Shown here: positions 1,641 to 18,791 of the stretch, one piece after another
Position numbering within the stretch: the stretch's first letter is position 1
Layout: each line of letters starts with the position of its first letter
Notes under the pieces: generated by a model
Database searches by the model: none
Seen by the model: the letters and a program-made list of their open reading frames with translations, nothing else
Told to the model about the DNA's origin: nothing
Made by a program: the position numbers and the translations under genes
Origin: Candidatus Hodarchaeota archaeon
GTDB lineage: Archaea; Asgardarchaeota; Heimdallarchaeia; Hodarchaeales; Hodarchaeaceae
DNA length: 26,329 nt
Assembly: GCA_016840035.1 (NCBI GenBank)
Contig: JAEOTC010000020.1
Coordinates: 1-26,329 of the forward strand
Direction: 5' to 3'

Positions 1641-2930
1641 TCATTGTAATGATTTAGTAAATTCTTCTAGAATATTAGAAGCTGTGACAAGATTGGGAGC
1701 GTAATTCCTAATGAACTCTACAGGATTCTTTTCGATCTCTAAGGATCTTTCCATATATTCATTTAAAATGAGGCCTCCATCATAGTCAACTGTTGATAAA
1801 CGAAGACAAAGATTCTTTCTTGGCATACCAAATTCAGAACCTGGTAAGCTAGCTAAGTTATATTTCTTTAGCAAATATTTCGCTAGCATCTTTGAAGTTC
1901 TTATTCCCATTTCTTTCAACGTTTTTTTGTGGTTATTCCAATCCGGAAATAAATAAAATCCCCCTTTTGGAGGTAAACATGAAATTCCAGCTTTTTCCAT
2001 ACGCTCATAGACATAATTAGTCATTATTTTATGAATCGCTGTGCATTTTTGAATGAAAGTAAGCATTTCTTTATCAGGAGTATACGCCTCAATTGCTGCA
2101 TATTGGATTGGGGAAGATGCAGAGGACCAAATCTCGCTAATAATGGATAAAATGGATCGTTTAACGTCATCATTTCTTTTAGGGAGTAAGAGAACCCCTA
2201 GTCGATATCCACCCAATGAACGATCTTTTGAGAACCCTCCGGTTATTATTGTCCCTTCAGGATAGAATTCTGCCATAGAATGATGATCTTGTCCATTATA
2301 ACTAATTAACGAATATATTTCATCAGAAATCACAATCACATTGTGTTTTCTTAGGATTGGGACTAAAGCCTCAAGTTGTTCTTTGGAGTATGATTGAGCA
2401 GTCGGATTACCTGGATAATTCAGTAGTAAAAGCTTCTGTGTGGATAATTCCAAATGTGTTTTTTCTAAGGCTGCTAATAGCAACGATGGAGTTAGTAAGT
2501 ATGAGTTTTCAGGGGATGTTTCAAGGAAAAGGACTTTTTTATGAACTAAATAGGCCTGATGTTGGTAACTTACCCAAGAAGGTGTTGGGAGTAAAAGTGG
2601 GCCTTCCAATGCAGCAATAGCATGAAAAATTAGTGATTTGCTTCCAAGAGCAACAATTACTTGTTTTGGTTTGAATTTTAATCCAAAAGCTTTCTTATAG
2701 AACACACAAATCTGTTTTCTAAGGGCAAGAAATCCCTGTGTGGGTGAATAATACTTTTTATCCGCATGAGTACAAAGTGCCTGTTTAACTCTAGGGTGTA
2801 CTGGAAAAGGAGATTCTCCAAATCCCATATGATAAATTTTTTGTCCTTTCTGACGTTTTTTAACCACTAGTTCGTTAATTGCTAGAGTAGCTGAGGGTTT
2901 TAGTTTCTTAATCTCTGGGACTATTTCCAT
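1641..2930 (-). CDS. PLP-dependent class I/II aminotransferase (aspartate aminotransferase-like)
   Basis: Motifs HMGFGES, GSK (subgroup Ib acidic-substrate Lys), NYPGNPT, SDEIY, GFSKDRSLGGYRLG (PLP Lys), PKGGFYLF, PGSEFG and LRLS. Confidence 0.9.
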   Translation of the reverse strand: MEIVPEIKKLKPSATLAINELVVKKRQKGQKIYHMGFGESPFPVHPRVKQALCTHADKKYYSPTQGFLALRKQICVFYKKAFGLKFKPKQVIVALGSKSLIFHAIAALEGPLLLPTPSWVSYQHQAYLVHKKVLFLETSPENSYLLTPSLLLAALEKTHLELSTQKLLLLNYPGNPTAQSYSKEQLEALVPILRKHNVIVISDEIYSLISYNGQDHHSMAEFYPEGTIITGGFSKDRSLGGYRLGVLLLPKRNDDVKRSILSIISEIWSSASSPIQYAAIEAYTPDKEMLTFIQKCTAIHKIMTNYVYERMEKAGISCLPPKGGFYLFPDWNNHKKTLKEMGIRTSKMLAKYLLKKYNLASLPGSEFGMPRKNLCLRLSTVDYDGGLILNEYMERSLEIEKNPVEFIRNYAPNLVTASNILEEFTKSLQ

Positions 2931-3099
2931 TTTTTATTTTCCTGCTCAATGTAAAGCATTTCACATTTGAGAGTATCGATATCGCTTCTGAAGTAGTATC
3001 TAACCCGTTACAACCCCTTATAAAAAGGTGATGAATGCTGATTTCGAAAGGATGGAGAAAAGAAGAATTTCAATTTTTCATGTCATTTCATTCATCTGA

Positions 3100-3115
3100 G
3101 AAATATTAATATTTC
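3100..3115. promoter_or_regulatory. Perfect 16-bp palindrome GAAATATTAATATTTC, candidate operator
   Basis: Self-reverse-complementary. Lies in the divergent aminotransferase/aminomutase intergenic region. Confidence 0.4.
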
Positions 3116-3214
3116 ACGGAATTCAGAAAGAAAATTAGATATTCTCCTTATAACTTGGATTTATGTCAAAATTATCTAATGATTTTTGAAAGTAAAAGGA
3201 CAGGAACATTAATA

Positions 3215-5029
3215 ATGTTAACAAGTACCGAAAAAATCAAGCCTAAATGGGAAAACTGTTGGAATGCTGATCCTGCAATCTATATGTTGCTTAAGAGAAG
3301 TAATACTGTAAATGAAGCCAGAGAAAAATTGCTACACTATTTGGAGGGACTAGAGTGGGCATATAGGAGAGATGTCACAGAAATTGCATCTTGGGATTAT
3401 ATTATACTCAAAGAGGCTGTTCGATGCTTGAAAAATATTATTTCTCCGCGTAATGAGAGACTAGCTCTTTGTTCCTCATTAGAATTGCTTTGGAAAGCTG
3501 CTGCTACAGGAGATGCAGAGGTCGAATATGGCTTTATCCAAGAATTTTATCATCTTTTCAACGCAATTAATGGGAATGCAAAAATTTATCCCCCTTTGTA
3601 TTTGGATAAATTGAGTATTCCTAATTTTGAAGGTCTTTATGGACAAGAAGCTAGTATCAAAAGATCAGACTACTTAGACCAGCTTTCGCAGAGTATGCAG
3701 TCCCGTGTTAAAAGATATCCAAGTGGATTTAATCCCGAGATTATCCAAGAGAGGATTCAACATAAAATAAAGATATTAGATGCATTAGGAGGGACTGAAG
3801 ATGATTGGATGGATTGGAGATGGCAATTTAAACATGTTTTCAAAGATTTGGATAACTTTGAAGTATTAAAAGACCTTATCGAATTAACTTCAGAGGAGGA
3901 GTCAGCTATACAGCTTGCTCTCGAGAATAACATACCTTTTGGAATCACTCCCCATTATTTACATCTAATGGACGAAAAACCAAATTCAAAAGATCTAGCT
4001 GTACGTAGACAAGTTATCCCACCTATTTCATATGTAAAAAAGATGATTGATGTTGGAGATGATCGCTCATCTCTTGATTTCATGCGTGAATCAGACACTA
4101 CTCCAATCAAGCTAGTCACTCGGAGGTATCCAAAGGTCGCAATTATCAAACCTTATGATTCTTGTCCGCAAATTTGTGTTTACTGTCAAAGAAATTGGGA
4201 GATCACTTCCCCATTTATGCCTAGAGCCATGGCTGATAAAAAAGACTTGGAAAATGCCTTAAATTGGTTTAAAGAGCATCCTGAGATTATGGATGTATTG
4301 ATCACTGGCGGGGATCCTTTAGTAATGTCAAATGATCGGATTAAATATATAATAGATGCTTTATCCAGAATTGAAACAGTTCGAAGCATTCGTATTGCCA
4401 CTAGAATACCCATTACTGTTCCAATGAGAATTACAAAGGATTTATGTGAGATTTTTGCGAAATATCAAGAAATAGGGAAGAGATACCTTAGCATGGTGAT
4501 CCATGTAGAACATCCGTATGAAATCACTTTTCATATGGCTGATGCGATTAAGAAGGTTAAGCAAAGTGAATTAGATGTATATAACCAACAGGTTTTTACT
4601 TTTTACAACAGTAAACGATTTGAAACTGTTGCATTAAGACTTAAACTTAAAGAAATCGGAATTGATCCATACTATAGTTTTAATATGAAAGGTAAAGATG
4701 AAATCAAGGACTATTCAGTTCCCATGGCTAGGATTTTACAAGAAAGAAAAGAAGAAGCTCGTCTACTACCTGGAATCTTCCGTGGTGATGAGCCAGTATT
4801 CAACGTTCCTTTTCTAGGGAAGAATCACTTACGTGCATGGCAAGATCACGAATTAATTTCCATACTTCCTGATGGAAAAAGAATGTACTCTTTCCATCCT
4901 TGGGAAAAGAATCTGGCGAAAGTAAAACCTTATCTCTATGTTGATGTTAGTATTCAATCCTACCTAGATAAATTATTAGAAGCGGGTGAGGATCCATCTG
5001 ATTATCGAAGTATCTGGTACTACTACTAA
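3215..5029 (+). CDS. eam: KamA-family radical SAM/PLP aminomutase, long form; probable glutamate 2,3-aminomutase
   Basis: WMDWRWQ, FGITPHY, RRYP, CPQICVYCQR (CxxxCxxC plus Arg), LITGGDPL, RIATR and PLP Lys in VPFLGK. Lys (PYYSFNMK) and Asn (PVFNVP) sit where lysine aminomutase has Asp293/Asp330. The ATG at 3215 with AGGA upstream is preferred over the TTG at 3155. KamA family about 0.95 certain; substrate call about 0.7. Confidence 0.8.
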   Translation: MLTSTEKIKPKWENCWNADPAIYMLLKRSNTVNEAREKLLHYLEGLEWAYRRDVTEIASWDYIILKEAVRCLKNIISPRNERLALCSSLELLWKAAATGDAEVEYGFIQEFYHLFNAINGNAKIYPPLYLDKLSIPNFEGLYGQEASIKRSDYLDQLSQSMQSRVKRYPSGFNPEIIQERIQHKIKILDALGGTEDDWMDWRWQFKHVFKDLDNFEVLKDLIELTSEEESAIQLALENNIPFGITPHYLHLMDEKPNSKDLAVRRQVIPPISYVKKMIDVGDDRSSLDFMRESDTTPIKLVTRRYPKVAIIKPYDSCPQICVYCQRNWEITSPFMPRAMADKKDLENALNWFKEHPEIMDVLITGGDPLVMSNDRIKYIIDALSRIETVRSIRIATRIPITVPMRITKDLCEIFAKYQEIGKRYLSMVIHVEHPYEITFHMADAIKKVKQSELDVYNQQVFTFYNSKRFETVALRLKLKEIGIDPYYSFNMKGKDEIKDYSVPMARILQERKEEARLLPGIFRGDEPVFNVPFLGKNHLRAWQDHELISILPDGKRMYSFHPWEKNLAKVKPYLYVDVSIQSYLDKLLEAGEDPSDYRSIWYYY

Positions 5030-5081
5030 TTATCTTTTATAATGAATCAAGAAGAATCAAACTGAAGACTGTGGAATGTAA

Positions 5082-5471
5082 ATGGTAGAAATAATAAAAA
5101 CTGATAAGGGGACTCCCCCTGGTGGATATTATAGTCAAGGAGTGAAAGCTGGAGATTTTGTTTTTATTGCTGGACAAGTTGCGGTCGATCCAGAAACTAA
5201 GAAATTAGTAACCGAAAATATCGAAGCTGAAACAAATCAAATCATGCAGAATCTCTCTGCAATTGCGAAAGCAGCTGGTACGTCTTTAGAACACACCGTT
5301 AAAACTACAGTTTTTTTGACAGATATGAGACTGTTTGAGAGATTCAATAAAACTTATGCAAAATATTTTCCTAAAAACCCTCCTGCACGGTCAACAGTTC
5401 AGGTTGGTCCCTTACTAAGAGAATTTCACGTAGAAATTGAAGCTATAGTTTATTGTCCTCCTAAATCTTAA
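5082..5471 (+). CDS. ridA: RidA-family reactive intermediate/imine deaminase
   Basis: YSQGV, FIAGQV, VKTTVFL, FNKTYAKYF, PARST (catalytic Arg) and VEIEAIV. Confidence 0.92.
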   Translation: MVEIIKTDKGTPPGGYYSQGVKAGDFVFIAGQVAVDPETKKLVTENIEAETNQIMQNLSAIAKAAGTSLEHTVKTTVFLTDMRLFERFNKTYAKYFPKNPPARSTVQVGPLLREFHVEIEAIVYCPPKS

Positions 5472-5478
5472 GAAATTC

Positions 5479-6711
5479 TTATTTCTTATTTTTTATAGGT
5501 ATTAACGTAAGAAATGCCCCCATCGAGAAAATGATTCCAAATATAAATATCAGAAGATAATTACTTGGAAATAGTGTAATTAAAAAACCATCTAATGTTG
5601 GTCCTACAGCTCGTACAACATTTACGGTCAACATGAACCCACCAAAGGCACTACCAATTTGTATTGTGTTTTGAGCTAAGAAACTATTCGTAACTGGCCA
5701 GAAAATTGCATTAACAACAAATAATACCATATATAACAAAAATAACACTAAAGGAATATTGAAAACAAAAATTCCAAAAATTACAATGCCTTGAAGAGCG
5801 GATGCAAACAAAAGAGCAGTTTTCTCAGAGAACCTATCTGCCATACTACCACCCAATAGTTGACCTGAAGCTCCGAATAGATGTGAAACCCCAATAAATA
5901 AAGCGGCATCAGAGATTTCAAACCCCTTGATTTCAGAAAGGAAAGGTGCAAGTATAAAGTTAATCATTCCCCATGTTAGGGACATTAAAAACATAAATAC
6001 AAATATTATTAATAAATTGGAGTTTATCTTAAATTTTAGGTTAGAAGTCAGAATATTTCCACTATTCTTTTTATAATTGACTTCTGATTTAATTCTTGGG
6101 GATTCATGTCTGGCAACAAAAACCCAAAACAACAAACTTAAAAGAAATAACGGAAACGACCACATTATATATATTTCATGCCAAGTCATGACATCTATTA
6201 AGAAAAAAACAGAAATCGGTCCAATTGAAGATCCAATTGTACCTCCAACACCGTGAATACCTAAAATTCTGTTTAAATAAGCAGAATATTCTCCTTTTTC
6301 TTCATTTTTGTAGGCTGAAGTTACCCATGATAAACCAGGTGGATGATAGAGTCCCACTCCTAATCCTACCAGGCTAAATCCAAAGGAAACACCAATGAGG
6401 GAGGGGCCCACTAATCCAATAATGAATGCACCTGAGGCACTAAGGATTAAGCTCAAACACATCATCTTACCACGTTGAATATGATCTGATAACCATCCGA
6501 ATAGAGGTGCTGGTAAACCTGCAGCTAATGTTCCAATTGTACCAATGGTTCCTAGACCAATCCAAGTATATTCCCCTAAGTTTAGGTCTTCTCCAACCGT
6601 AAGAACTAGCACTGGAAAAATAAAATAGGGGATTTCAACTGTGAGGTGAACAAGAAATGCAGAAACAAGGCTAGACCTTGCAGATAGTGTCTTCTTATAA
6701 GGAATAGACAT
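5479..6711 (-). CDS. MFS transporter
   Basis: About 12 TM helices, motif A twice (GWLSDHIQRG, GSMADRFSEK), GLYHP. Starts 15 bp after the LivG-like gene. Confidence 0.9.
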   Translation of the reverse strand: MSIPYKKTLSARSSLVSAFLVHLTVEIPYFIFPVLVLTVGEDLNLGEYTWIGLGTIGTIGTLAAGLPAPLFGWLSDHIQRGKMMCLSLILSASGAFIIGLVGPSLIGVSFGFSLVGLGVGLYHPPGLSWVTSAYKNEEKGEYSAYLNRILGIHGVGGTIGSSIGPISVFFLIDVMTWHEIYIMWSFPLFLLSLLFWVFVARHESPRIKSEVNYKKNSGNILTSNLKFKINSNLLIIFVFMFLMSLTWGMINFILAPFLSEIKGFEISDAALFIGVSHLFGASGQLLGGSMADRFSEKTALLFASALQGIVIFGIFVFNIPLVLFLLYMVLFVVNAIFWPVTNSFLAQNTIQIGSAFGGFMLTVNVVRAVGPTLDGFLITLFPSNYLLIFIFGIIFSMGAFLTLIPIKNKK

Positions 6712-6726
6712 TTTAGTCGTCTTAGA

Positions 6727-7608
6727 TTAATAATCTGCCCCTAAATAAGCCTCAATTACTTCTTTATTAGTTTCTATTTCTTTAGGAGTACCTTGAGCAA
6801 TGATTTTTCCTCTGGCCATTACATAGATTTCATCGGAGTAATTAAACACTACATCCATATTATGTTCAATAAGAAAAATCGTAGAGTCTGACTTGAGCTC
6901 TAAAATCTTGTCCATAATCTTATTCCCCAAAGTAGGATTTACTCCAGCCATTGGTTCGTCTAATAGGATTAATCGTGGAGCAGTCATCAGCAGTCTACCA
7001 ATGGCAAGAAGTTTTAATTGTCCTCCGGATAGTTCTTCCCCTAATTGATCACGGATGTGAGTAATCTCAAGGAAATCTAGTATCTCAAGTGCTTTCAAAA
7101 CATTTCGACGTTCCTCTTCCCTTATCTTCCTTTTACGGAAAAATATGTTGAAAAAACCTTCTCCTGTTTGTTTATGAGGGGCAACAAGTAGATTTTCCAA
7201 TACCGTTAACTTTGGCCAATTACGAGTAGTCTGGAATGTTCTGAGCATGCCTGTTAATGCTGCTTCATGAGTGTTCATACCATCAATCCGAACATCCTCA
7301 AATTGGACATGTCCAACATCTTCATGTTCTACCTTTGGAGATCGATCAAATCTTTGAGAAAACCAATTGATAATGGAATTACTGTATTCCTGCGATTCCA
7401 TCTCCTCGTGTTCCTTGGGAATTGTTTTTTCTAGCCACGCTGTAACTACATTGAAAAAAGTTGTTTTCCCAGAGCCATTAGGGCCAATTAATGAGACTAG
7501 TTTGTTCTTTGTTACTAATATACTTGCACCTTCAAGAGCTCGTACGCCTCCGAAGTATTTATGAAGATTTTGTGCATCTAAACTTAAATTCTTTTCAGTT
7601 GAAGTCAT
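6727..7608 (-). CDS. livG: Amino-acid (Liv-type) ABC transporter ATP-binding protein, LivG-like
   Basis: Walker A GPNGSGKTT, RTFQ, LSGGQ, LLDEPMAGVNP, IEHNM and C-terminal VIEAYLG. About 34-aa insertion after Walker A. Confidence 0.9.
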   Translation of the reverse strand: MTSTEKNLSLDAQNLHKYFGGVRALEGASILVTKNKLVSLIGPNGSGKTTFFNVVTAWLEKTIPKEHEEMESQEYSNSIINWFSQRFDRSPKVEHEDVGHVQFEDVRIDGMNTHEAALTGMLRTFQTTRNWPKLTVLENLLVAPHKQTGEGFFNIFFRKRKIREEERRNVLKALEILDFLEITHIRDQLGEELSGGQLKLLAIGRLLMTAPRLILLDEPMAGVNPTLGNKIMDKILELKSDSTIFLIEHNMDVVFNYSDEIYVMARGKIIAQGTPKEIETNKEVIEAYLGADY

Positions 7609-8985
7609 TTAAGCACCTTCCTTAGCCGGAGCTTTATCTTCTTCGTCGATCCTTTCTCTCTCTGTTAAACTTTGTCTTCGACTCACGGCTAAATCTGAAT
7701 CCTCCCTCTCTTCGGTAGTAAGTAGCTTTAGATACTTCTCATTATCCGTTTTCGGTTCCCGAATTAATCCAGCGGGTTTGAAGAGAAGAAATAAGACCAA
7801 AATTATACCTAGAATTACGAATCGAAGATTAAATGGGTTTATAAAAACATCTAATTGCAGAAATTCCAATATTGGGCCTAGAAGAGGAGTATCTGGACCA
7901 AAGTAGAAGCTGAAATTTTCCTTAACAGCATCTACCTGACCAGCACGCAAAAACATCGTCACTAGTGCTGTTCCAGCAAACGCACCTTTACTATTCCCTA
8001 ATCCACCAATTATAATGAACATATATAGTTGAAATGTTAAGGCAGGTCGAAATTCAGCTGCTTCAAAAGCCCCAAAAGTTGTAGCATACATGACACCAGC
8101 TAAACCAGCTAATAAGGCAGCTACGGTTGTAATTTGCCAGCGAAAGCGCGCAACATCCTTTCCTACAGAGGTTACCGTGATATCATCCTCACGAATCGCT
8201 CGAATGGTTCGACCATAAGGTGATTTCCGAATTTGTTGAACAAGCCAGTAAGTCAATAGACTGATCAATAAAAATACCCCTACTAATAGGATTTCCCATA
8301 AGAAGACATTCCCCCATGTAAAATCAGTAACTTTCCAACCAGCAGGTATCAGGTTAGATCCAAGTAATGAATCAAATAATTCTATTGGTATTATTATAAT
8401 TCGGATAATGAGAATAGTTACTCCATTAAAGGGCGTTAGGTCGATTACTTGATCGAAGAACCCGGTAAATTGGATTTTAAACTTGTTTGTTATTACCTGA
8501 GTATTAGTTCCCGCTGGAGAAAGTACCCATAACCATCTTTTTTCATATGCTAGCATAAGACGGATAATTTCTCCTCCAGCAATTGTCATAATTGCAAAAT
8601 AGTCTGCACGCAATTTCACTGTAGGGATTGAGATGAAATATCCCACAACAGCAGAGAGAAGCAGTGCCAATAATACCGCAATTGGAAAAGGAACACCCCA
8701 TTCACTATAGAGGAGAGTAGATGTATATGCACCAATTGCAAAAAATCCCACTTTACCGAAATTTGGTAGTCCCATACTCCCCACTTCAAGATCAAGACTT
8801 ATTGCACCTACAAAAAAAACCATTATAGTTGTTAGTGTCCCTACTATCCATGTTCCTCTAATATCGATCCCAAACAAAAACGCATATAAATATAGTATTA
8901 AAATCGGGACAGCTAAAGCCAAACCAATGTATAATTCTGATCTTCCTTCTACTAAGTTACCCACACTTTCCGAATTTTTCTTCAT
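7609..8985 (-). CDS. livM: Liv-type ABC permease, LivM-like
   Basis: GLPNFGKVGFFAIGAY, LRADYFAIMTIAGGEIIR, SPYGRTIRAIRED and IIGGLGN. Confidence 0.9.
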   Translation of the reverse strand: MKKNSESVGNLVEGRSELYIGLALAVPILILYLYAFLFGIDIRGTWIVGTLTTIMVFFVGAISLDLEVGSMGLPNFGKVGFFAIGAYTSTLLYSEWGVPFPIAVLLALLLSAVVGYFISIPTVKLRADYFAIMTIAGGEIIRLMLAYEKRWLWVLSPAGTNTQVITNKFKIQFTGFFDQVIDLTPFNGVTILIIRIIIIPIELFDSLLGSNLIPAGWKVTDFTWGNVFLWEILLVGVFLLISLLTYWLVQQIRKSPYGRTIRAIREDDITVTSVGKDVARFRWQITTVAALLAGLAGVMYATTFGAFEAAEFRPALTFQLYMFIIIGGLGNSKGAFAGTALVTMFLRAGQVDAVKENFSFYFGPDTPLLGPILEFLQLDVFINPFNLRFVILGIILVLFLLFKPAGLIREPKTDNEKYLKLLTTEEREDSDLAVSRRQSLTERERIDEEDKAPAKEGA

Positions 8986-9006
8986 ATTGTGTTTCCTCCT
9001 GAAAAG

Positions 9007-10074
9007 CTATACCCGAGCTCGTGTTGCCTCCACACTTCCATAGATACCTTGAGGCCTCACAAGTAAAACAATGATAAGGACCACAAATGCAATTGCATCA
9101 GCATATGCAGGTGCAAAGGTTACAGTAAACCCAAGCGTCTGTTCAATAGTATCTTCGAGTCCATTTGGTTTCTGGATTTCGGTTAAAACGATTAGAGCGA
9201 TTTCTCTACTAAAAGCTATAATAAATGCGGCCACGATCCCTCCTCGGAACGATCCGACTCCTCCAAGGATGACAACAGTGAATATAGGAAGAAGTAAAAA
9301 GAATCCATCAAGCGAACTAAAGCGAGCTTGAGTAGCACGGACAAATGAAGCCCCCATTCCTGTTATACCTGCTGCCAGAAACCATGTGTAAAGTATAATT
9401 CGTTTTGTATTAATTCCGCACACATCAGCAAGTTCAAAAGAATCAGAGGTAGCTCGCATGGCAATACCAAATTTAGTTTTCTTGAAAACATAATCAATAA
9501 CGACTACAGTCAGTATACTAATGATAATAATCAGAAGTTGAAAACTAGTAATAAAGATTCCTTGACTGCCAAAGATTGGATGTCTTCGAATAAATTGAAG
9601 CTTGATATCAAAATTAAGATTAAATGGTAACGAAGGTGTACTTGTGCCTCCAAGTCCATGTTGAGGGAAATTGCCGAAAATCATTGCTAAGAAATTCCGA
9701 ATAATAAGCCCTATACCTATTGAGGCAACGGTAAAAGATCTCGAAGAGGCATCGAAACTCCGTAATCTACCATAAACAAGAACTTCTCCTAGTACTCCAA
9801 TTATTCCGACCATCACAAATGCAAAAGTAGCTTGAATAAACAAATTATTGATGAGATGTTCTCCTGTAGTATCCCAAGGGATCGCAAACGTTAGAATTTG
9901 TAAAACCCACCAAGACATGAACATCCCTGCGGTAACAAACTCAGCATGTGCAAAATTTGAGAATTTTAAAACAGAATACACCATATTTAGACCGATTGTC
10001 AATATGATTAAGGTTCCTGCATAAATTAAAGCCAAGCCAGTATGACTAAATATGTCAAATGAAAAGAGTACCAT
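9007..10074 (-). CDS. livH: Liv-type ABC permease, LivH-like
   Basis: GLNMVYSVLKFSNFAHAEF, TKFGIAMRATSD, VILGGVGSFRG and LLVRPQGIYG. Confidence 0.9.
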   Translation of the reverse strand: MVLFSFDIFSHTGLALIYAGTLIILTIGLNMVYSVLKFSNFAHAEFVTAGMFMSWWVLQILTFAIPWDTTGEHLINNLFIQATFAFVMVGIIGVLGEVLVYGRLRSFDASSRSFTVASIGIGLIIRNFLAMIFGNFPQHGLGGTSTPSLPFNLNFDIKLQFIRRHPIFGSQGIFITSFQLLIIIISILTVVVIDYVFKKTKFGIAMRATSDSFELADVCGINTKRIILYTWFLAAGITGMGASFVRATQARFSSLDGFFLLLPIFTVVILGGVGSFRGGIVAAFIIAFSREIALIVLTEIQKPNGLEDTIEQTLGFTVTFAPAYADAIAFVVLIIVLLVRPQGIYGSVEATRARV

Positions 10075-10092
10075 ATATTTTTCACCTTCTAT

Positions 10093-10851
10093 TCAAGTAT
10101 TATTTTCGTTCCTGTCTCTAACTCCTAGATAGAGTTTTCTTATCTTATCTTCAGCTAATAATTCACTAGCTGGACCTGTAGCTGCTACCTCACCAGTGAC
10201 TAGTACATATCCCCGATCTGATAACTCTAGGGATCTTCTAGCTCGTTGTTCAACAAGAAGGATAGCGATTCCTAGCTCTTTCTTTAGAGTTACAATTAGT
10301 TGTAACATTTCCTCCGCAATGTTTGGTTGAATTGCTGCGGTAGGCTCGTCTAAAATTAACATATCGGGTTCAGGCATTAATGCACGTGCTAGTGCAAGCA
10401 TTTGTCTTTCTCCACCACTAAGTAAACTTGCTTTCTGATCCATTCGCTCTCCTAATATTGGGAAAAGAGCAACCATTTTATCGATGTTCTTACTATAATC
10501 TGCATCCCATTTCTTAGTATAGAATCCCATCTTCATATTTTCTTCAACAGTCAAACTGGGGAAAACGTTGGCTAATTGAGGAACATAACCCAAGGGAATA
10601 CCTGTTCTAATTATTTCATGGGGTTGAAGGTGACTTACATCGTGATCACGAAGGAAAACTTGTCCTGAAAACATTTTAACAAGGCCTATCATGGTTTTTA
10701 TTAATGTGCTTTTACCACTACCATTAGGGCCTATTATTGTAACAAGTTCATTTTCATTTACGTGAATATCGATTCCATTGATTACTTGAAGCTTCCCATA
10801 ACCAGAAACTATGTTTACTCCCCGCAAAACTGTTTGACTCATAAAAAACAT
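10093..10851 (-). CDS. livF: Liv-type ABC ATP-binding protein, LivF-like
   Basis: SGYG, GPNGSGKST, GYVPQ, LSGGERQMLA, ILDEPT and LLVEQ. Alternative start at ATG 10842. Confidence 0.9.
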   Translation of the reverse strand: MFFMSQTVLRGVNIVSGYGKLQVINGIDIHVNENELVTIIGPNGSGKSTLIKTMIGLVKMFSGQVFLRDHDVSHLQPHEIIRTGIPLGYVPQLANVFPSLTVEENMKMGFYTKKWDADYSKNIDKMVALFPILGERMDQKASLLSGGERQMLALARALMPEPDMLILDEPTAAIQPNIAEEMLQLIVTLKKELGIAILLVEQRARRSLELSDRGYVLVTGEVAATGPASELLAEDKIRKLYLGVRDRNENNT

Positions 10852-10915
10852 TTCCTCTAAGCTGACCTAAAAATACTTTGTGTGATTTGATTACTATGAT
10901 TGAAAACAGTGACTG

Positions 10916-10951
10916 AAAAAAAAGAAAAGGGGGGATTGGATATTAATCCAA
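10916..10951 (-). terminator. Hairpin plus C/U tract after the binding-protein gene (internal terminator or mRNA stabiliser)
   Basis: Minus strand TTGGAT-TAAT-ATCCAA then TCCCCCCTTTTCTTTTTTTT directly after the stop. Confidence 0.6.
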
Positions 10952-10952
10952 G

Positions 10953-12341
10953 TTACTTTCGTCGTTTTCTGATTATGACTAAAACTCCTCCAACAAAAAG
11001 GAGACTTAGATAACCAAATCCTGGAGCACCAGCTCCAGCTTCTTTCTCTAGCGTGACTACGTTATCAGCAATACTCCATTCCGAACCATCAGCTAATTCA
11101 AGCAGATCGGTGTCATCTAGAATAGGTGAAGCGGTAGTTGCACCAGAAGGAATATCATATGTTCCAAATGAAGTGTAAGTTTCGTCTTCTAACTGTACAT
11201 AGTCATAGCGACCGACAACTTCTCCAAGGGCGTTGAATACGATATTACCTGACGCACCAGGATGAGTAACATCGTATAAAGCAGCTAATAAGTCATCACC
11301 ATCAACAGAATCAGCGGCAGCCAATCCTTTCGCTGCGACATACACTGCATCGTATGCAAAAGGTGCATATGAGTTGAAGTGAGCGCCACCACCTTGACTG
11401 CGTGCGGGGCCTTCTAACCAGGCAGAAGCGGCGTCATACCATGTGTCATTAAAAGTTTGATATCCAGCTGCGGTTATAGGAGCGGGTGTTGTCCCAATTT
11501 GCATTTGCATTGCTGATTTAACATCATCATCCGTTGCGAATGTGGCTGTAGTTGACCAACCATCAGTCATCAACCAGGGGATATTATCAATTCCCAATTC
11601 GTGAGCTTTCTTCATACATGTTGCTGCATCAACATCGATAAAGTTACCTACAACAAACTCTGGGTCTGCATCTTTTATTGCTTGGACTTGAGAAGAAACA
11701 TCAGTTGCTCCAGCATCAAATTGTTGAGCTGTGGCAATTGTACCATCCCAATTCTGATCGAATATGTCAATCAGTCCAGTTCCATAGCTATCACTAGTAG
11801 AGATAGTTGCTCCAGTTTCCCAACCAAATTTCTCAACTAAATCTGCAATTGCTTTTCCTTGATCAGCATCTGAGGCTGCAACTCGCATGAAGTATGGATA
11901 CAATGTTCGATCACTTAATGCTGGTGAGGAGGAAGCATAGGATATTTGTACAATCTTTTGAGGAGTTAATTCTGTTGCCATGGCAGCGCTTACACTACTA
12001 CCAGAGGAACCAATTACAATATCAGCTCCCCAGCTGATCAGTGTTTGGGCTGCAGCTGTTCCTCCAGCGGCACTATTATCGTCGTCTTGGACATTCGGAA
12101 GAAGGGTTGTTTCTTCAGGGAGAATTCGTGAAGGTCCTGATTGATTGTTAATTTCGGCAATCGCAAGTAAAAATCCGTCTCGTCGATCAGGTCCTGCATC
12201 AGGCCGTTGAACTATTGGAAACACGCCTCCAACTCTAACTTCAGCTGGTAAAGCACTGGTTTTTGCTTTTGTTTCAAAAGTCATAACCGACAATACCATT
12301 ACTGCTAATAGAAGAAGGGTTAATTTTTGTCTTTTCATCAA
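10953..12341 (-). CDS. ABC amino-acid substrate-binding protein (ANF-receptor/Venus-flytrap fold) with signal peptide and PGF-type C-terminal anchor
   Basis: N-terminal signal peptide. Motifs VGGVFP, AIAEIN, VIGSSGSSVS, QISYASSSPALSD, YPYFMRV, AYDAVY and GASGNIVFN. C-terminus APGF-TM-RKRRK. First gene of the liv operon. Alternative start at ATG 12338. Confidence 0.9.
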   Translation of the reverse strand: MMKRQKLTLLLLAVMVLSVMTFETKAKTSALPAEVRVGGVFPIVQRPDAGPDRRDGFLLAIAEINNQSGPSRILPEETTLLPNVQDDDNSAAGGTAAAQTLISWGADIVIGSSGSSVSAAMATELTPQKIVQISYASSSPALSDRTLYPYFMRVAASDADQGKAIADLVEKFGWETGATISTSDSYGTGLIDIFDQNWDGTIATAQQFDAGATDVSSQVQAIKDADPEFVVGNFIDVDAATCMKKAHELGIDNIPWLMTDGWSTTATFATDDDVKSAMQMQIGTTPAPITAAGYQTFNDTWYDAASAWLEGPARSQGGGAHFNSYAPFAYDAVYVAAKGLAAADSVDGDDLLAALYDVTHPGASGNIVFNALGEVVGRYDYVQLEDETYTSFGTYDIPSGATTASPILDDTDLLELADGSEWSIADNVVTLEKEAGAGAPGFGYLSLLFVGGVLVIIRKRRK

Positions 12342-12441
12342 TATCTACCTTAGGTATTTTTTTGATCTTGGTCTTACATGTCAGAAAAATCTGAGATTTG
12401 AACTGAGATTAAATACCAATTAATGACAATGTAGCCAAGAT
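12342..12441 (-). ncRNA. Candidate structured 5' leader (riboswitch-like) of the ABC operon
   Basis: Inverted arms at 12424-12441 and 12365-12383 (about 16 bp with bulges). SD-masking mini-hairpin at 12346-12356. Loop GGUAUUU is complementary to the anti-SD AAAUACC. Confidence 0.4.
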
Positions 12442-12465
12442 AATTTCCTAAGTGCTCAATACTGA

Positions 12466-12479
12466 TATTTAAGTTTTTA
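12466..12479 (-). promoter_or_regulatory. Putative BRE+TATA promoter of the liv operon
   Basis: Minus strand TAAAAA-CTTAAATA; predicts a TSS near 12442. Confidence 0.55.
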
Positions 12480-12707: not shown

Positions 12708-14129
12708 ATGAACAAAACAAAGGAATTTCTCTTCATTCTAATCTTCTTCAGTATTCTTCATACTGGGCAAATTCTTGGACAGAATTCGATTAAATTAATA
12801 GATTTTTCTGAAAATAAGTTACTCTCAACAAGTGATTCTCCGTATACTCATCATGTGGAACCTACAATTGCTCTAAGTGATAATGGAATCATTTTTGCAG
12901 GATGGAAAGAGGCCTACACGCACAATGGAGGAGGAGTGCGAGTTAGCTTTTCTAAATCATTAGATAATGGACAAACTTGGTCTACACCATTTAATATGCC
13001 ACATTTCATACCAGATACTGGCCAATCCGATCCGTGGTTAGTCTGGGATGATGGAAGTCAAAGTTTGTTCTATACCTATTTAGAATTTGATCTTAATGGG
13101 CCTTTGGGAAAGAGTTTTTCTCAGATGACTGTTGCAAAAAGTATAGACTATGGCGAAACTTGGAGTAAAGTAACGGCTACGTATGGAGTAGGTTTTGCAG
13201 ATAAAGAGACTATGACAGTGAGTAATGACGGAACACTCTATGTAGTTTATGATGATATAAATATGACCTCTGGAGCTACTTATGTACGTTTAACTAGATC
13301 TGATGATGGTGGTAGTACTTTCAATGAAATAAGTACTATCGCTGATTCTATCTCAAATCCAATAGATCATCTTGCTCCTTACATCACAACGGACAGTAAT
13401 GATAATGTCTATGTTGCTTGGCTATGGTTTACAGATGGTATGTGGGGGGATATTTATGTTACCTCCTCAAGTGATCAAGGACAATCATTTAGTAATCCAG
13501 TTGATATCAACCAAGAAAGCGAAAATGGGACATTCGAAACTTCTATTGACCAACGTCCAACAAAAGGATCAATTCCTGTTATCCGTTTTGATCCAAACGG
13601 CCGACTATATGCAATCTGGGCCGGTAGATATGTGGAAAATGGTCTTTGGGATATCTTCATCAGATTTTCAGATGATCAGGGGTTGACTTGGAGTGAGCGA
13701 TATCAAGTCAATCCTAATAGCGCTGGGAATCAATGGATGCCAGATCTTGATATAGACTCTCAAGGAAATGTCCATGTAGTTTATTATGATGACAATGGGG
13801 GACCATCCTTCAAACCATATTATCGGATACTAGAGTTTCCAACAACAGGAGAACCGATATTTAGTGACCCAATGGATATTTCAAATGGAATTTCTACATC
13901 AAATACGTTCACAAGACCAGGTGATTACTTTACAATCCGACTTGACGCTCAAGATTTACCTCATGTCGTATGGTCGGATGGTAGGAATGATGAGATGGAT
14001 ATTTACTATGCACACGGTCTTACTTCTGATGATAAATCAGAAACTACGGCTAAAAAATCTTCGTTCAATTTTCCTGTCTTAATGCTCCTACTAGGCATTG
14101 TCCTGATCAATAATAGGAAAAAAAGGTAG
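12708..14129 (+). CDS. Secreted, membrane-anchored BNR/Asp-box beta-propeller (sialidase-fold) protein
   Basis: Signal peptide, five Asp boxes (SLDNGQTW, SIDYGETW, SDDGGSTF, SSDQGQSF, SDDQGLTW), C-terminal GDY motif, Thr/Ser linker, TM and RKKR tail. GGTGA SD. Confidence 0.85.
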   Translation: MNKTKEFLFILIFFSILHTGQILGQNSIKLIDFSENKLLSTSDSPYTHHVEPTIALSDNGIIFAGWKEAYTHNGGGVRVSFSKSLDNGQTWSTPFNMPHFIPDTGQSDPWLVWDDGSQSLFYTYLEFDLNGPLGKSFSQMTVAKSIDYGETWSKVTATYGVGFADKETMTVSNDGTLYVVYDDINMTSGATYVRLTRSDDGGSTFNEISTIADSISNPIDHLAPYITTDSNDNVYVAWLWFTDGMWGDIYVTSSSDQGQSFSNPVDINQESENGTFETSIDQRPTKGSIPVIRFDPNGRLYAIWAGRYVENGLWDIFIRFSDDQGLTWSERYQVNPNSAGNQWMPDLDIDSQGNVHVVYYDDNGGPSFKPYYRILEFPTTGEPIFSDPMDISNGISTSNTFTRPGDYFTIRLDAQDLPHVVWSDGRNDEMDIYYAHGLTSDDKSETTAKKSSFNFPVLMLLLGIVLINNRKKR

Positions 14130-14521: not shown

Positions 14522-15046
14522 TTATGATATCTGTCGTAATACCTTTTGAACAATATCCTGAAAGATTAGGGGGATAACTTTCCCTCCAAATTTTGCTGAA
14601 GCTTCATAGAAGCTAGATCCTTTGGATCTGGCATATCTTTGTCCGTCAATTTGTTTGACCTCTCTTCGTTCAGCTAAATCAATCTTATTTCCAATAATCG
14701 AAATAACTTTATCCTTCCCCGCTACTTCCTGATATTCTCGAATCCATCTATTCAAATCGTTTAAAGTATCAGGTCGAGTTATGTCATAAACAGCAAGACA
14801 ACCTAAGGAGCCTTCAAAATAGGTTCGTCGCAAACTACCGAATTTTTCTTCTCCAGCTGTATCCATGAAAACCAAACGAATGGGTTTTGCATCAATGATA
14901 ATCCCTCGCTTAACAGTAATATCTACTCCCAGAGTCGGTAAATAATCTTCGGAGAATGAATTTTCTGTATACCTCCGAATAAGAGAAGTTTTGCCAACAG
15001 CAAAAGTACCCACAGAATTGAGTTTGATAATTACCTCGTTGGACAT
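14522..15046 (-). CDS. Rab-like small GTPase (Ras superfamily, eukaryotic signature protein)
   Basis: G1 GTFAVGKTS, G2 YLPTLGVD, G3 DTAGEE, G4 NKID, G5 EASAK, and RabF-like AVYDIT. The ATG at 15046 follows a GGAGG SD. Confidence 0.92.
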   Translation of the reverse strand: MSNEVIIKLNSVGTFAVGKTSLIRRYTENSFSEDYLPTLGVDITVKRGIIIDAKPIRLVFMDTAGEEKFGSLRRTYFEGSLGCLAVYDITRPDTLNDLNRWIREYQEVAGKDKVISIIGNKIDLAERREVKQIDGQRYARSKGSSFYEASAKFGGKVIPLIFQDIVQKVLRQIS

Positions 15047-15283
15047 CAAAAACTCCTCCAACACACCTATTTTTCTTTAGTGTTAAAAGGAATTCCAAAT
15101 GATGAGAAAATGCTTCGGAATTTAGCTCGAAGTCGATGAATTCTATTAAACCATCAATAAATCGTAATAAGTCTACTGCTTGATTATTCTTCCTGAGAAA
15201 AAACAGTTCACAATTGATAAGGCTATAAAATGACTATCAGGCGTTATAATTATAAAATATGTATGTTATCTTACTAAAAAGTG

Positions 15284-15304: not shown

Positions 15305-15362
15305 GTATTTCGTTGAAAAACGGATTCTACTGATAAATAATTGTGAAGAAGTGAGGTCACTC

Positions 15363-15791
15363 ATGAAATTAAGTCCTTCTCAAGAAAGAGTAAAGTTATT
15401 CATTCCAAAACATTCGGGTTCATCAGCATTTTGGTGGGTCCTACAAAGACTCTCGGGATTTTTTGTTTTCGTCTTTGTATTCCTTCATATGGTAATTAAT
15501 CATTATTTAACATTACTGATGGAAACAGAGGATATTCCTGAGTTAGCGAACGGTATTGCTTCATTCCAAGCAGTCCAATGGAAGATGCAAAACCCCTTAT
15601 ATTTCTGGGTCTCCATTCTATTTGTTGTATTTCTCATAATACATATGCTTAATGGATTCAGAATGGTGGTTCTTGATGTAGCAACAGGACATTCATTCCG
15701 AAAGATTTTCGGTATTCTTTTAATTTTGGTTGGTATCCTAATTGTGCTGTATGCTTTTGTTCTCAATTCAACGGTGTTATCTCTTGGGTGA
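15363..15791 (+). CDS. sdhD: Succinate dehydrogenase hydrophobic membrane anchor
   Basis: 3 TM helices; WVLQRLSG, FLH and IHMLNGFRMVVLD. GAGGT SD before the ATG at 15363. First gene of the sdh operon. Confidence 0.75.
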   Translation: MKLSPSQERVKLFIPKHSGSSAFWWVLQRLSGFFVFVFVFLHMVINHYLTLLMETEDIPELANGIASFQAVQWKMQNPLYFWVSILFVVFLIIHMLNGFRMVVLDVATGHSFRKIFGILLILVGILIVLYAFVLNSTVLSLG

Positions 15792-15797
15792 TGTAAA

Positions 15798-16313
15798 ATG
15801 GCTGAAAAAGAAGTAATAGTAGATCAAGCACAAGCTACAACAGGTAGTAAATTATCAAATTTACTTAGCTGGTTTAATCCATTCTCCCGAGGGGTAGGTA
15901 TGTGGGCATGGATAGCTCAACGATTAACAGGTCTGTTCCTCGTTATGTATGTATTTATTCACCTTGGAATTATTGGGACTATGTTATTAGATGATTTCCT
16001 TGGATTCAATACTGGACAATTATACAATAGTATCACATCAGCCATGAGTTCGCCTTTAATTGAAGTAACGGGCCTCCCAAGTATTTTTGAACATGTATTT
16101 TCCTTTGCATTCTTCATTGATGCGGCTTTATTAGCTGCACTAGTGTACCATGGTTATAATGGGATCCGAGTTGTTCTCTTCGATTTAGGAATTGGAATTC
16201 GTAAACAGAAAACAGTTTTCTGGATACTGCTCATCCTCGGTATTATATCTTATTTCTTGGCAATATGGCTTATTCTTAGTGTCCCCGCCATTGTCTTGTC
16301 ATCAGGAGCGTGA
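15798..16313 (+). CDS. sdhC: Succinate dehydrogenase cytochrome b subunit
   Basis: GMWAWIAQRLTG, FIHL and YHGYNGIRVVLFDLG; 3 TM helices. Confidence 0.8.
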   Translation: MAEKEVIVDQAQATTGSKLSNLLSWFNPFSRGVGMWAWIAQRLTGLFLVMYVFIHLGIIGTMLLDDFLGFNTGQLYNSITSAMSSPLIEVTGLPSIFEHVFSFAFFIDAALLAALVYHGYNGIRVVLFDLGIGIRKQKTVFWILLILGIISYFLAIWLILSVPAIVLSSGA

Positions 16314-16319
16314 AAGAAT

Positions 16320-18038
16320 ATGATTAAAAAGCATTCAGTTTTAGTAGTGGGTTCTGGTCTTTCAGGAATGAGAGCTGCTATAGCGGCTAAAGAAAGTGGT
16401 GTAGATTGCGCAGTTATATCAATTTGTCAACCTGTGAGAAGTCACAGCGTAGCAGCACAAGGAGGAATTAATGCTCCGCTAGGAAATGCTCCTGAGTCAA
16501 AGGACGATTCAGTTGAACGTCACGCTTTTGATACGGTAAAAGGTTCAGATTATCTTGCTGACCAACCAGCCGTATTGAAAATGATTGGTTTAGCGAAAGA
16601 AACTATCTACGAGCTTGAACACTGGGGTTGCCCATTTTCACGATTTGAAGATGGAAAGATAGGTCAAAGACCTTTTGGAGGAGCCGGATATCCGAGAACT
16701 TGCTTTGCAGCAGATAGAACGGGTCACTCTGTTATTCATGTGTTGTGGGAAAGATCGGTCAAACTTGGTGTTCCAGTTTATGAAGATAGATTTGTAGTTA
16801 AATTAGCCACCAAAGATAAAAAAGTTACAGGGTTAATTGCATTAAACTTTGTGACTGGCGAACTAGAAATGTGGGAATGTGATGCGGTTGTTTTCGCAAT
16901 TGGAGGTGCAGGCCAAATTTATGGAGCTACTTCAAATGCACTAAATTGCACTGGATTTGGTATCGCAGTTGCCGCATGGGCTGGTGTTGCTATGAAGGAT
17001 ATGGAATTTATTCAGTTTCATCCAACATCACTCTACGGGAATAATGTACTGATCAGCGAAGCAGCCCGAGGAGAAGGTGGATATCTTCGTAACAACAAGG
17101 GAGAACGCTTCATGGAAAAATATGCACCTGAAAAAATGGAACTCGCACCTAGAGATATCGTTTCAAGATCGATCTATCAGGAAGTCCTTGAAGGACGTGG
17201 TTATGGGACAAAAGAGAATGGTTATGTCCATCTTGACCTTACCCACCTACCAGAATCGCAAATACTAGAACGACTTCCACAAATTCGAGAGCTTGCCTTG
17301 AGATTTTCAGGTCAGGATATGGTCAAGGATCCAATTCCTGTACAGCCAGGTTTTCATTATTTGATGGGTGGAACCCATGTTGATGAGAATTGTGCTAGTC
17401 CAGAGGTAGCAGGTTTCTATGCTACTGGTGAAGGAGCTTGTATTTCTGTTCATGGTGCTAATCGTCTTGGAGGAAATTCATTATTGGGTTGTGCTGTTTT
17501 CGGTAAGGTTGCTGGTTTAGAAGCAGCTAAATACGTCAAAGAAAACCCTTCAGTTTCCGATGCCCAATATTCAATTTTTGATGCGTATAAAAAACAACAA
17601 GAAGAAGTTGATTACTGGTACAGTGGCGAAGGTCAGAATGATCCTTTCGAAATTATGGAAGAAATGCGAAATGTCATGAAACTCAATGTATTCGTCTATC
17701 GTAAGGAAGACCAACTTCAAAAAGCTCTTGACAGTATTAGAGCATTAAAGAAGAAATTCAATGACGGAGTTTTTCTTAAATCGAAAGTTAGACACTATAA
17801 TCGAGAGTTAGAATGGGTTTTTGCTCTTAAAGGAATGCTTGACGAATCAGAGGCGATTTGTATAGGTGCTCTTGCTAGAAAAGAGTGTCGTGGTAGCCAT
17901 TGGCGTCTTGACCATATGAAGAGAGACGATGATAATTTCTTAAAGCATTCGCTAGTGAACTTTGTTAATGGCGAAGCAAAACTTAGCTATCAGGATGTCC
18001 AAATAACTAAATGGCAACCTGAAGAGAGGAAATACTGA
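16320..18038 (+). CDS. sdhA: Succinate dehydrogenase/fumarate reductase flavoprotein subunit
   Basis: GSGLSG Rossmann motif, [10 protein letters not shown] (covalent FAD His), [25 protein letters not shown] and [11 protein letters not shown]. Confidence 0.96.
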
Positions 18039-18047
18039 GGTGAAATC

Positions 18048-18791
18048 ATGAGTTCGACTAAGGAAACTAAAATGTTAACTTTCAAAATAAAACGTTTTAA
18101 TCCAGCGGTAGATGATAAACCTTATTTCGATACATTTGAATTGGAGTGTAACGAAGGAACCACGGTTCTAATTGCAATTCAGGAACTTATTGCCAAGCAA
18201 GATGGTTCTATTGCCATGAGATACAATTGTCGTGCTGGAGTTTGCGGTAGTTGTGCCGTTCTAGTGAATAAAAAATATGCTTTAGCTTGTGAGACTCTTG
18301 TTTTACAGTTGAATAAGAAAGAGATTAAGTTAGAACCTCTTCCCTTCTATCCTGTGATTAAAGATCTTGTTGTTGATATGTCACAATTCTACGAGAAATT
18401 ACTAGCTATTGAACCCTACTTGAAACGAGATCATTCTAAGGATCCTGAAGCTGAAATCCTTCAAAGTCCAGATGATTTCCATATCATTGAGGAATCTACC
18501 AAATGTATTCTCTGTGGAGCCTGTCACTCCTCGTGTGTCTCTGTTTGGACAGATAAAAACTATTTGGGTCCAGGTGCTTTATTGAAGGCATTCCGTTTTG
18601 CTAATGATACTCGTGATGAAGATAAACGTCAGAGGATCAAACGGGTTACTGCTGAAGATGGAGTTTTTCGATGTCATACCGCTTTTAACTGTGTGGAAGC
18701 TTGCCCCAAGGAACTTAATCCCACAGAAGCGATTCAGACATTGAAACGTCAATCTGCAAAACAAACATTGAAATTTTGGTCGAGAAGGTGA
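18048..18791 (+). CDS. sdhB: Succinate dehydrogenase iron-sulfur subunit
   Basis: CRAGVCGSC..C (2Fe-2S), CILCGACHSSC and CHTAFNCVEACP (4Fe-4S/3Fe-4S). GAGGTGA SD. Confidence 0.96.
   Translation: MSSTKETKMLTFKIKRFNPAVDDKPYFDTFELECNEGTTVLIAIQELIAKQDGSIAMRYNCRAGVCGSCAVLVNKKYALACETLVLQLNKKEIKLEPLPFYPVIKDLVVDMSQFYEKLLAIEPYLKRDHSKDPEAEILQSPDDFHIIEESTKCILCGACHSSCVSVWTDKNYLGPGALLKAFRFANDTRDEDKRQRIKRVTAEDGVFRCHTAFNCVEACPKELNPTEAIQTLKRQSAKQTLKFWSRR

Follow-up and report, generated by a model that had tools for sequence, protein, structure and literature searches.

Here we describe a gene cluster on a 26,329-nucleotide stretch of DNA from Candidatus Hodarchaeota archaeon (assembly GCA_016840035.1, contig JAEOTC010000020.1; hereafter the window), the source genome being a Heimdallarchaeota/Hodarchaeales metagenome-assembled genome (MAG). 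The cluster joins an ATP-binding cassette (ABC) importer, a transaminase, a radical S-adenosylmethionine (SAM) aminomutase that looks glutamate-type, and a carrier of the major facilitator superfamily (MFS). Such a four-part cluster has not been described before in Asgard archaea; the enzyme itself is known. Among the osmolytes of methanogens beta-glutamate is a classic one, yet the enzyme that makes it was reportedly not identified until 2022. Our leading reading, a tentative one that we place a little short of an even chance, is that the cluster makes beta-glutamate as a solute from glutamate that is either imported or made by the transaminase. The cluster consists of nine genes:

1641..2930, minus strand: class I/II aminotransferase, subgroup Ib-like, 429 aa (PF00155, E 1.5e-51)
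3215..5029, plus strand: KamA-family radical SAM protein, putative long-form glutamate-type 2,3-aminomutase, 604 aa (TIGR00238, 328 bits)
5082..5471, plus strand: RidA (Rid family enamine/imine deaminase), 129 aa (TIGR00004, 137.6 bits)
5479..6711, minus strand: MFS_1 carrier, 410 aa, last gene of the transporter operon (PF07690, E 1.6e-41)
6727..7608, minus strand: livG-like ABC ATPase, 293 aa (PF00005 and PF12399 BCA_ABC_TP_C)
7609..8985, minus strand: livM-like permease (BPD_transp_2), 458 aa (PF02653, E 6e-38)
9007..10074, minus strand: livH-like permease (BPD_transp_2), 355 aa (PF02653, E 2e-28)
10093..10851, minus strand: livF-like ABC ATPase, 252 aa (PF00005, E 5e-33)
10953..12341, minus strand: Venus-flytrap binding protein, surface-anchored, ANF_receptor/Peripla_BP_6, 461-462 aa (PF01094, 153 bits)

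Open reading frame (ORF) coordinates and Pfam/NCBIfam profile scans gave these genes the same identity, order, and orientation as a first-pass annotation made from the DNA letters alone. The aminotransferase gene on the minus strand is divergent from the KamA-family and RidA genes on the plus strand. This pair converges with a minus-strand operon that runs from 12341 down to 5479 in the order binding protein, livF-like ATPase, two permeases, livG-like ATPase, and MFS carrier.

The ORF of the aminomutase gene spans 3155-5029 on the plus strand and opens at TTG 3155. Because close relatives are all 598-604 aa long, the true start is predicted to be ATG 3215, giving 604 aa. The protein exceeds the cut-off of the KamA family model TIGR00238 (199 bits) and falls below every equivalog cut-off, with scores of 215, 172, and 153 bits for the glutamate, lysine, and arginine models. 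The best-scoring equivalog is the glutamate model TIGR04368 (approximately 215-216 bits, well under its cut-off of 650), and the score against the lysine 2,3-aminomutase model TIGR03820 (AblA/KamA) compares with a cut-off of 525. The CxxxCxxC motif lies at nucleotides (nt) 4163-4186 and reads CPQICVYC, and the Lys that binds pyridoxal 5'-phosphate (PLP) is Lys536 of the FLGK motif (nt 4820-4822). In the alignment with lysine 2,3-aminomutase (2A5H), Lys492 (nt 4688-4690) stands opposite Asp293. That alignment ends at residue 307, so the position of Asp330 was mapped through two proteins that pass TIGR03820, one from a Clostridia MAG and one from an Anaerolineales MAG. When these were aligned with the long forms, Asn530 (nt 4802-4804, in FNVPFLGK) fell opposite the Asp of DAPGGGGK in both, seven residues ahead of the PLP Lys, the same spacing as Asp330-Lys337. 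Short KamA-like genes from other Heimdall genomes (L006-L009) were dropped as lysine-enzyme references, having passed none of the equivalog cut-offs. Across 14 archaeal and bacterial long forms there is no variation at Lys492, Asn530, the three cluster Cys residues, the Arg after the last Cys, or the FLGK Lys, which bears out the Lys/Asn glutamate signature claimed in the first-pass annotation. The Arg134-type Arg is kept. An N-terminal extension of approximately 190 aa precedes the KamA core, profile position 191 aligning with residue 12 of 2A5H.

The exchange of the Asp pair for Lys and Asn is reportedly the published mark of glutamate 2,3-aminomutase, described by Ruzicka and Frey in 2007, and Tunckanat et al. 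are said to have found in 2022 that a methanogen enzyme with an N-terminal extension of approximately 160 aa makes beta-glutamate. Because Lys and Asn replace the lysine-binding Asp pair, the glutamate equivalog scores best, and the build is that of the long form, the window aminomutase looks glutamate-type and not lysine-type. By build and residues it appears to match the long-form methanogen glutamate 2,3-aminomutase, an enzyme type already known since 2022. Compared by description, it resembles the enzyme of Methanococcus maripaludis C7, reportedly that of Tunckanat et al., in the KamA radical SAM/PLP core, an N-terminal extension of approximately 160-200 aa, and the glutamate-type residues. 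In archaea that enzyme reportedly makes beta-glutamate for salt tolerance, and no importer, transaminase, or MFS carrier is known to have been described as its partner, whereas the window gene stands in a conserved four-part cluster. The clostridial enzyme Eam (TIGR04368) likewise has Lys and Asn at the Asp293 and Asp330 positions, but the window protein is far from its cut-off and has an extra N-terminal domain and a different C-terminal part. With lysine 2,3-aminomutase (KamA/AblA, including the methanogen ablAB osmolyte operon), the protein shares the fold family, the cluster motif, and the PLP Lys, and the principle that a beta-amino acid serves as osmolyte would be common to both, but the Asp pair is replaced, and profile scans of the window showed no ablB-type acetyltransferase among its genes. 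At least 596 species-level genomes, belonging to anaerobic archaea and bacteria, encode the long-form enzyme. In one Bacillota MAG, two long-form KamA genes stand in tandem on one contig (L104 and L107, G043:C323).

The aminomutase gene was found in 4 of the 21 other genomes of the genus, and each of these four shows the cluster up to where its contigs end. Gene order in two of these (G004 and G002) is the same as in the window. In G016 the parts are all adjacent, with the ABC operon shifted to the other side of the aminotransferase gene, and RidA was not found. A more distant Hodarchaeales lineage (L134/L135) has a third order, in which the ABC operon is divergent from the aminomutase gene and is followed by the aminotransferase and MFS genes. 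Identity to the window proteins is 66% for the aminomutase, 54% for the aminotransferase, 56% for the binding protein, and 54% for the MFS carrier, and spans 54-67% across the cluster in this lineage. MFS orthologues adjoin the aminomutase gene in G002, G004, G016, and L135. The linkage in relatives on which the first-pass proposal hung was thereby recovered, with importer, aminotransferase, aminomutase, and MFS carrier together in three gene orders. Because a third order is found in the L134/L135 lineage and the Heimdall/Hodarchaeales aminomutases form one clade in our tree (support 100/100), we take the cluster to be old and retained. One record of the L135/L139 type is labelled Odinarchaeota, and its aminomutase groups tightly with the Hodarchaeales one. 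The cluster is closely followed downstream by bacterial-microcompartment genes (BMC, EutN_CcmL, PTAC, and aldehyde dehydrogenase) in L135 (18106-18972) and L139 (12456-19363).

We read the cluster as two joined units that also occur apart. The first would be a substrate-binding-protein-dependent ABC importer with a class I (Asp/Glu-type) aminotransferase, to which RidA has apparently been added in this subclade; the second would be the long-form glutamate 2,3-aminomutase, with its predicted [4Fe-4S] cluster and PLP, together with the MFS carrier. Genome G020 has the aminotransferase, RidA, and ABC operon in the window order and lacks the aminomutase and MFS genes. Its 175-bp RidA-livG spacer (L126, G020:C132, 2249-2423) holds the first 11 and last 30 MFS codons (E 4e-10) and is the scar of a clean internal deletion of the MFS gene. 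No aminomutase remnant was detectable in the aminotransferase-RidA spacer of G020, and by parsimony with the MFS scar the aminomutase was presumably lost there as well. As RidA is intact between both missing genes, two separate deletions are likely. Importer and aminotransferase genes are also found without the aminomutase, often as one operon, in G005, G023, and three genomes of another family, and the aminotransferase gene closes the importer operon in both G023 and family f5. Importer plus aminotransferase is an older unit, found in other Heimdall families with no aminomutase at all. Conversely, L139, a close relative of L135, has an intact aminomutase gene only; the aminotransferase gene and the ABC operon are missing, and two MFS fragments (69 and 58 aa, approximately 54% identical to the window MFS) lie at 10458-10832 between the aminomutase and citrate synthase genes. 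An intact MFS gene was found only where both units are present.

The importer is a five-part system of the HAAT family, with a binding protein, two BPD_transp_2 permeases, and two ATPases assigned by Pfam and encoded co-directionally at 6727-12341. This architecture is that of the LIV-I/HAAT importers (LivJFGHM, BraC, and Nat), from which the window system differs in its binding protein. The binding protein matches PF01094 (ANF_receptor) at 153 bits, above PF13458 at 110 bits, and scores 45.1 bits against the LivJ model NF011933, which has a cut-off of 477. Its C-terminal tail carries a PGF motif, a transmembrane segment, and RKRRK, and scores 21.3 against the Heimdall-CTERM cut-off of 24. Eukaryotic class C receptors account for all 60 of the solved sequence matches listed. 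Among solved structures, the protein comes closest by both sequence and fold to the metabotropic glutamate receptors (mGluRs) mGlu4, mGlu8, and mGlu7, with mGlu4 the best sequence match (E 4e-39 with the family profile). The AlphaFold2 model has a pLDDT of 89.5, its fold ranking agrees with the sequence ranking, and glutamate-bound mGlu8 (6BSZ) matches it with a TMq of 0.66. The top solved matches are flytrap domains of mGluR, CaSR, or GABA-B and not of bacterial binding proteins. In a library of 1.84 billion proteins, the matches that follow the Heimdall relatives include eukaryotic class C G-protein-coupled receptors (GPCRs), two of which carry ANF_receptor and 7tm_3 domains and two of which are fish CASR tandem gene models. 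The binding protein is of interest in its own right: among solved structures, this Asgard family has its nearest relatives in eukaryotic glutamate receptors.

The residues that hold the alpha-amino acid core of the ligand in mGlu1 (Ser165, Thr188, Asp208, Tyr236, and Asp318; 1EWK) were used for comparison. In the binding protein, GSSGSSVS, YASS (with Ser in place of Thr), Asp158, Tyr186, and Asp260 align with the corresponding positions of mGlu4. An invariant Asp52-Arg53-Arg54-Asp55 places Arg53 at the mGlu1 Arg78 position, both by ungapped offset from a conserved EIN anchor and in the alignment with the eukaryotic class C receptors from the 1.84-billion-protein library. A search of the Protein Data Bank (PDB) with the N-terminal 83 aa alone returned no matches. 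Unlike the mGluRs, the window protein is no receptor but an ABC binding protein, soluble and anchored; its identity to mGluR ligand-binding domains is 21-24%, and the shared core motif also serves flytraps that bind other amino acids. The ligand is probably an alpha-amino acid and an acidic one (Glu or Asp), the acidic side chain being a reasonable guess because an mGluR-type core is combined with Arg53 at the Arg78 position. A plain Leu/Ile/Val importer is unlikely: the LivJ score is far below its cut-off, the Arg-Arg pair at the side-chain end of the pocket is invariant, and the closest solved matches are glutamate receptors. On this point the first-pass annotation is supported. For the MFS carrier, the comparisons gave no substrate signal, with no match in the PDB sequence search, weak organic-anion MFS matches in NCBIfam, and generic MFS clusters in the Atlas.

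The closest solved structures to the aminotransferase are 4MY5 (Streptococcus mutans), the Arabidopsis prephenate aminotransferase 5WMH, and the Thermus thermophilus aspartate aminotransferase (AspAT) 1BJW. With the subgroup Ib AspAT and prephenate aminotransferases it shares the fold, the PLP Lys (Lys235, in SK), the alpha-carboxylate Arg (Arg378), and the G-x-K Lys that meets the distal carboxylate. Lys235 and Arg378 both align with 5WMH, and Lys98 (GSK) stands opposite the Lys of GAKQ in that subgroup Ib enzyme; the equivalent residue of T. thermophilus AspAT we take to be Lys109. The first-pass annotation had treated this Lys as a sign of an acidic substrate. Its position was borne out, but it discriminates little, as most such enzymes take dicarboxylic substrates. 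Lys98 fits dicarboxylic (Asp/Glu) substrates without being specific and is only weak evidence for a glutamate-specific module, because nearly all such enzymes use Glu/2-oxoglutarate. The protein falls below all equivalog cut-offs, including that of NF041091 (asp_aminotase_Arch; 196.3 bits against 550), and differs from the solved enzymes in belonging to an Asgard-wide orthogroup (48-56% identity across phyla) with Methanothrix relatives, in which we found no characterised member. In Thorarchaeota its gene stands alone.

RidA scores 137.6 bits against the TIGR00004 cut-off of 106.25. It is kept in G020 without the aminomutase and was found neither in G016 nor beside the aminomutase in the L135 lineage; RidA goes with the aminotransferase/ABC unit and not with the aminomutase. 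The idea that RidA guards the aminomutase, which the first-pass annotation had put forward, was accordingly rejected. A breakdown route through 3-oxoglutarate, in which the transaminase would act on beta-glutamate, was also considered and judged unlikely, as the enzyme is a class I alpha-aminotransferase. To our knowledge, beta-transaminases belong to classes other than class I.

Links between pairs of these genes recur outside the Asgard archaea. In about six Methanotrichaceae loci, the aminotransferase orthologue adjoins the aminomutase gene tail to tail. The window aminotransferase and the one encoded next to KamA in Methanothrix are reciprocal best hits, at approximately 270 bits compared with at most 115 for paralogues. 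Among Methanotrichaceae loci L029, L030, L031, L034, L052, and L095, a TrkH gene lies immediately upstream of the aminomutase in four, and in L029 and L030 an MscS-type channel gene stands between the two. Some Methanotrichaceae loci have the aminotransferase orthologue and a Kef-type (Na_H_Exchanger and TrkA_N) antiporter downstream. The aminomutase in this family apparently sits in an osmoregulation island. Operons of the liv-type ABC kind adjoin the aminomutase gene in Thermoproteota and in Anaerolineales, on one strand in the latter. The Arg-Arg pair is present in the KamA-linked binding proteins of Thermoproteota and absent from those of Anaerolineales. In two Thermoproteota loci (L087 and L090), the gene for a separate radical SAM protein of 362 aa (approximately 8730-9830) immediately precedes that of the long-form aminomutase, and one for an unassigned protein of 306-318 aa immediately follows it, ahead of the ABC operon.

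The rest of the window agrees with the Asgard origin proposed in the first-pass annotation, which is also evident from relatives titled Heimdallarchaeota or Hodarchaeales and from the Heimdall-CTERM-like tail of the binding protein. A Ras-family small GTPase gene, a typical eukaryote-like Asgard signature, lies at 14522-15064 on the minus strand (PF00071, E 3e-41) and has a syntenic counterpart in G004. A gene for a BNR/Asp-box repeat protein (12708-14129, plus strand) adjoins that of the binding protein; it too is syntenic in G004, and it has no evident link to the cluster. A succinate dehydrogenase (SDH)/fumarate reductase operon with two Sdh_cyt membrane subunits, a flavoprotein, and an Fe-S subunit follows at 15351-18791 (plus strand); SDH/fumarate reductase-type flavoprotein genes flank the cluster in L135 and L139 too, with citrate synthase at the opposite side. 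A short ORF at 22696-23016 (plus strand) matches the Cas12f1-like TNB domain alone and is probably a TnpB-type remnant. An Rfam search of the window returned no RNA families.

The sequence evidence establishes which genes are present, their active-site residues, and the conservation of the clustering; the ligand of the binding protein, the substrates of the aminotransferase and the MFS carrier, and the direction of flux we infer in the following way. Glutamate would be supplied by ABC import or from 2-oxoglutarate via the aminotransferase, and the aminomutase would isomerise it to beta-glutamate, which would accumulate with K+ under salt stress as an anionic and metabolically inert solute. The MFS carrier may then move beta-glutamate across the membrane, for release or recapture. 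We favour synthesis because it is reportedly the only tested role of this enzyme type, and because of the Methanothrix setting. The first-pass annotation had proposed the same route from imported or newly made glutamate through beta-glutamate to the MFS carrier. Its glutamate-type aminomutase and the linkage in relatives have held up, but the osmolyte direction is conjectural, and salvage of beta-glutamate fits the comparative data about equally well.

Several observations weigh against dedicated synthesis. Orthology of the aminomutase to the characterised methanogen enzyme is indirect, through shared build and residues. When 80 long-form loci were sampled from other phyla, about 60 proved to lack both an ABC system and an aminotransferase orthologue in the vicinity. 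Importer and aminotransferase occur without the aminomutase in three Heimdall families, from which it follows that they are not dedicated to beta-glutamate, and the retention of the aminomutase alone in L139 suggests that it works without the other parts. The Arg pair of the binding protein is alike in clusters with and without the aminomutase. At the mGluR Lys409 site the binding protein has an invariant Tyr325 and the contact is not kept, so the first-pass claim that the mGluR ligand residues are retained is borne out only in part, namely, for the core (Ser/Ser(Thr)/Asp/Tyr/Asp) and for an Arg at the Arg78 position. An importer-linked cluster in a heterotroph, beside SDH/fumarate reductase-type and citrate synthase genes, also looks catabolic at least as much as biosynthetic.

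The strongest competitor is salvage or catabolism of beta-glutamate, possible though rather doubtful in our judgement. The MFS carrier would import external beta-glutamate, which many sediment anaerobes could release, and the aminomutase would run in reverse to give L-glutamate. The aminotransferase would pass the amino group on, 2-oxoglutarate would feed the nearby genes of the tricarboxylic acid (TCA) cycle type, and the ABC importer would bring alpha-glutamate or aspartate to the same transaminase. The operons of G023 and family f5 suit this idea, as importer and aminotransferase form an uptake-and-transaminate unit in their own right. Both cases of decay are explained as well: in G020 the aminomutase was lost, the MFS carrier went too, and the alpha-amino acid unit stays, and in L139 the importer and aminotransferase were lost, the MFS gene decays, and the aminomutase stays for a stand-alone role. 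Two lineages have SDH/fumarate reductase-type and citrate synthase genes on the flanks of the cluster, and the importer-linked long-form aminomutases of Anaerolineales are accompanied by IclR regulators. However, making beta-glutamate is reportedly the one role that experiment, in the 2022 work, has assigned to this enzyme form. The Methanothrix setting, with TrkH, MscS, and Kef beside the aminotransferase orthologue, also appears biosynthetic, because Methanothrix does not live on amino acids. The MFS carrier shows no substrate signal in the comparisons above, and we know of no MFS-type beta-glutamate importer.

It is improbable, though not fanciful, that the genes are loosely coupled neighbours, with importer, aminotransferase, and RidA serving general amino acid uptake, the aminomutase an independent osmolyte gene, and the MFS cargo unrelated. 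Each unit does occur alone in close relatives (G020, G005, G023, family f5, and L139), most long-form aminomutases of other phyla stand alone or in varied settings, and the aminotransferase orthogroup is Asgard-wide, including the solitary gene of Thorarchaeota. Yet the four parts have stayed adjacent through three gene orders at 54-67% protein identity, the pairs aminotransferase-aminomutase and ABC-aminomutase recur in unrelated phyla, and in G020 the aminomutase and MFS genes are both gone around an intact RidA, apparently by two separate deletions. The default annotation, a lysine 2,3-aminomutase making beta-lysine beside a branched-chain amino acid importer, is what relatives are labelled with and what the family-level Pfam and NCBIfam matches (KamA and Liv) say, but we rejected it as very improbable given that both lysine-binding Asp residues are replaced, the TIGR03820 and LivJ scores are low (172 against 525 and 45 against 477), no ablB-type acetyltransferase was seen in profile scans of the window, and the pocket with its invariant Arg-Arg is closest to glutamate receptors. 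The first-pass annotation had held that such default labels would hide the function of the cluster; the lysine and branched-chain labels on relatives agree with this, but what they hide is already known, a glutamate assignment for the long KamA form having reportedly appeared in print in 2022.

For beta-glutamate synthesis and its competitors alike, the cluster offers a concrete and testable Asgard setting with four candidate partners, namely, the binding protein, the transaminase, the aminomutase, and the MFS carrier, and relatives such as G020 (without aminomutase and MFS) and L139 (aminomutase only) provide natural "knock-outs." Should Hodarchaeales instead salvage beta-glutamate from other sediment anaerobes, by MFS import, a reversed aminomutase, and delivery of 2-oxoglutarate to central metabolism, which we consider unlikely on present evidence, this would be the first route of beta-glutamate utilisation described in archaea and would make beta-glutamate a traded substrate in anoxic sediments. 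From the direction of flux through the cluster one could learn how these relatives of eukaryotes deal with salt, or how they live on the solutes of others.

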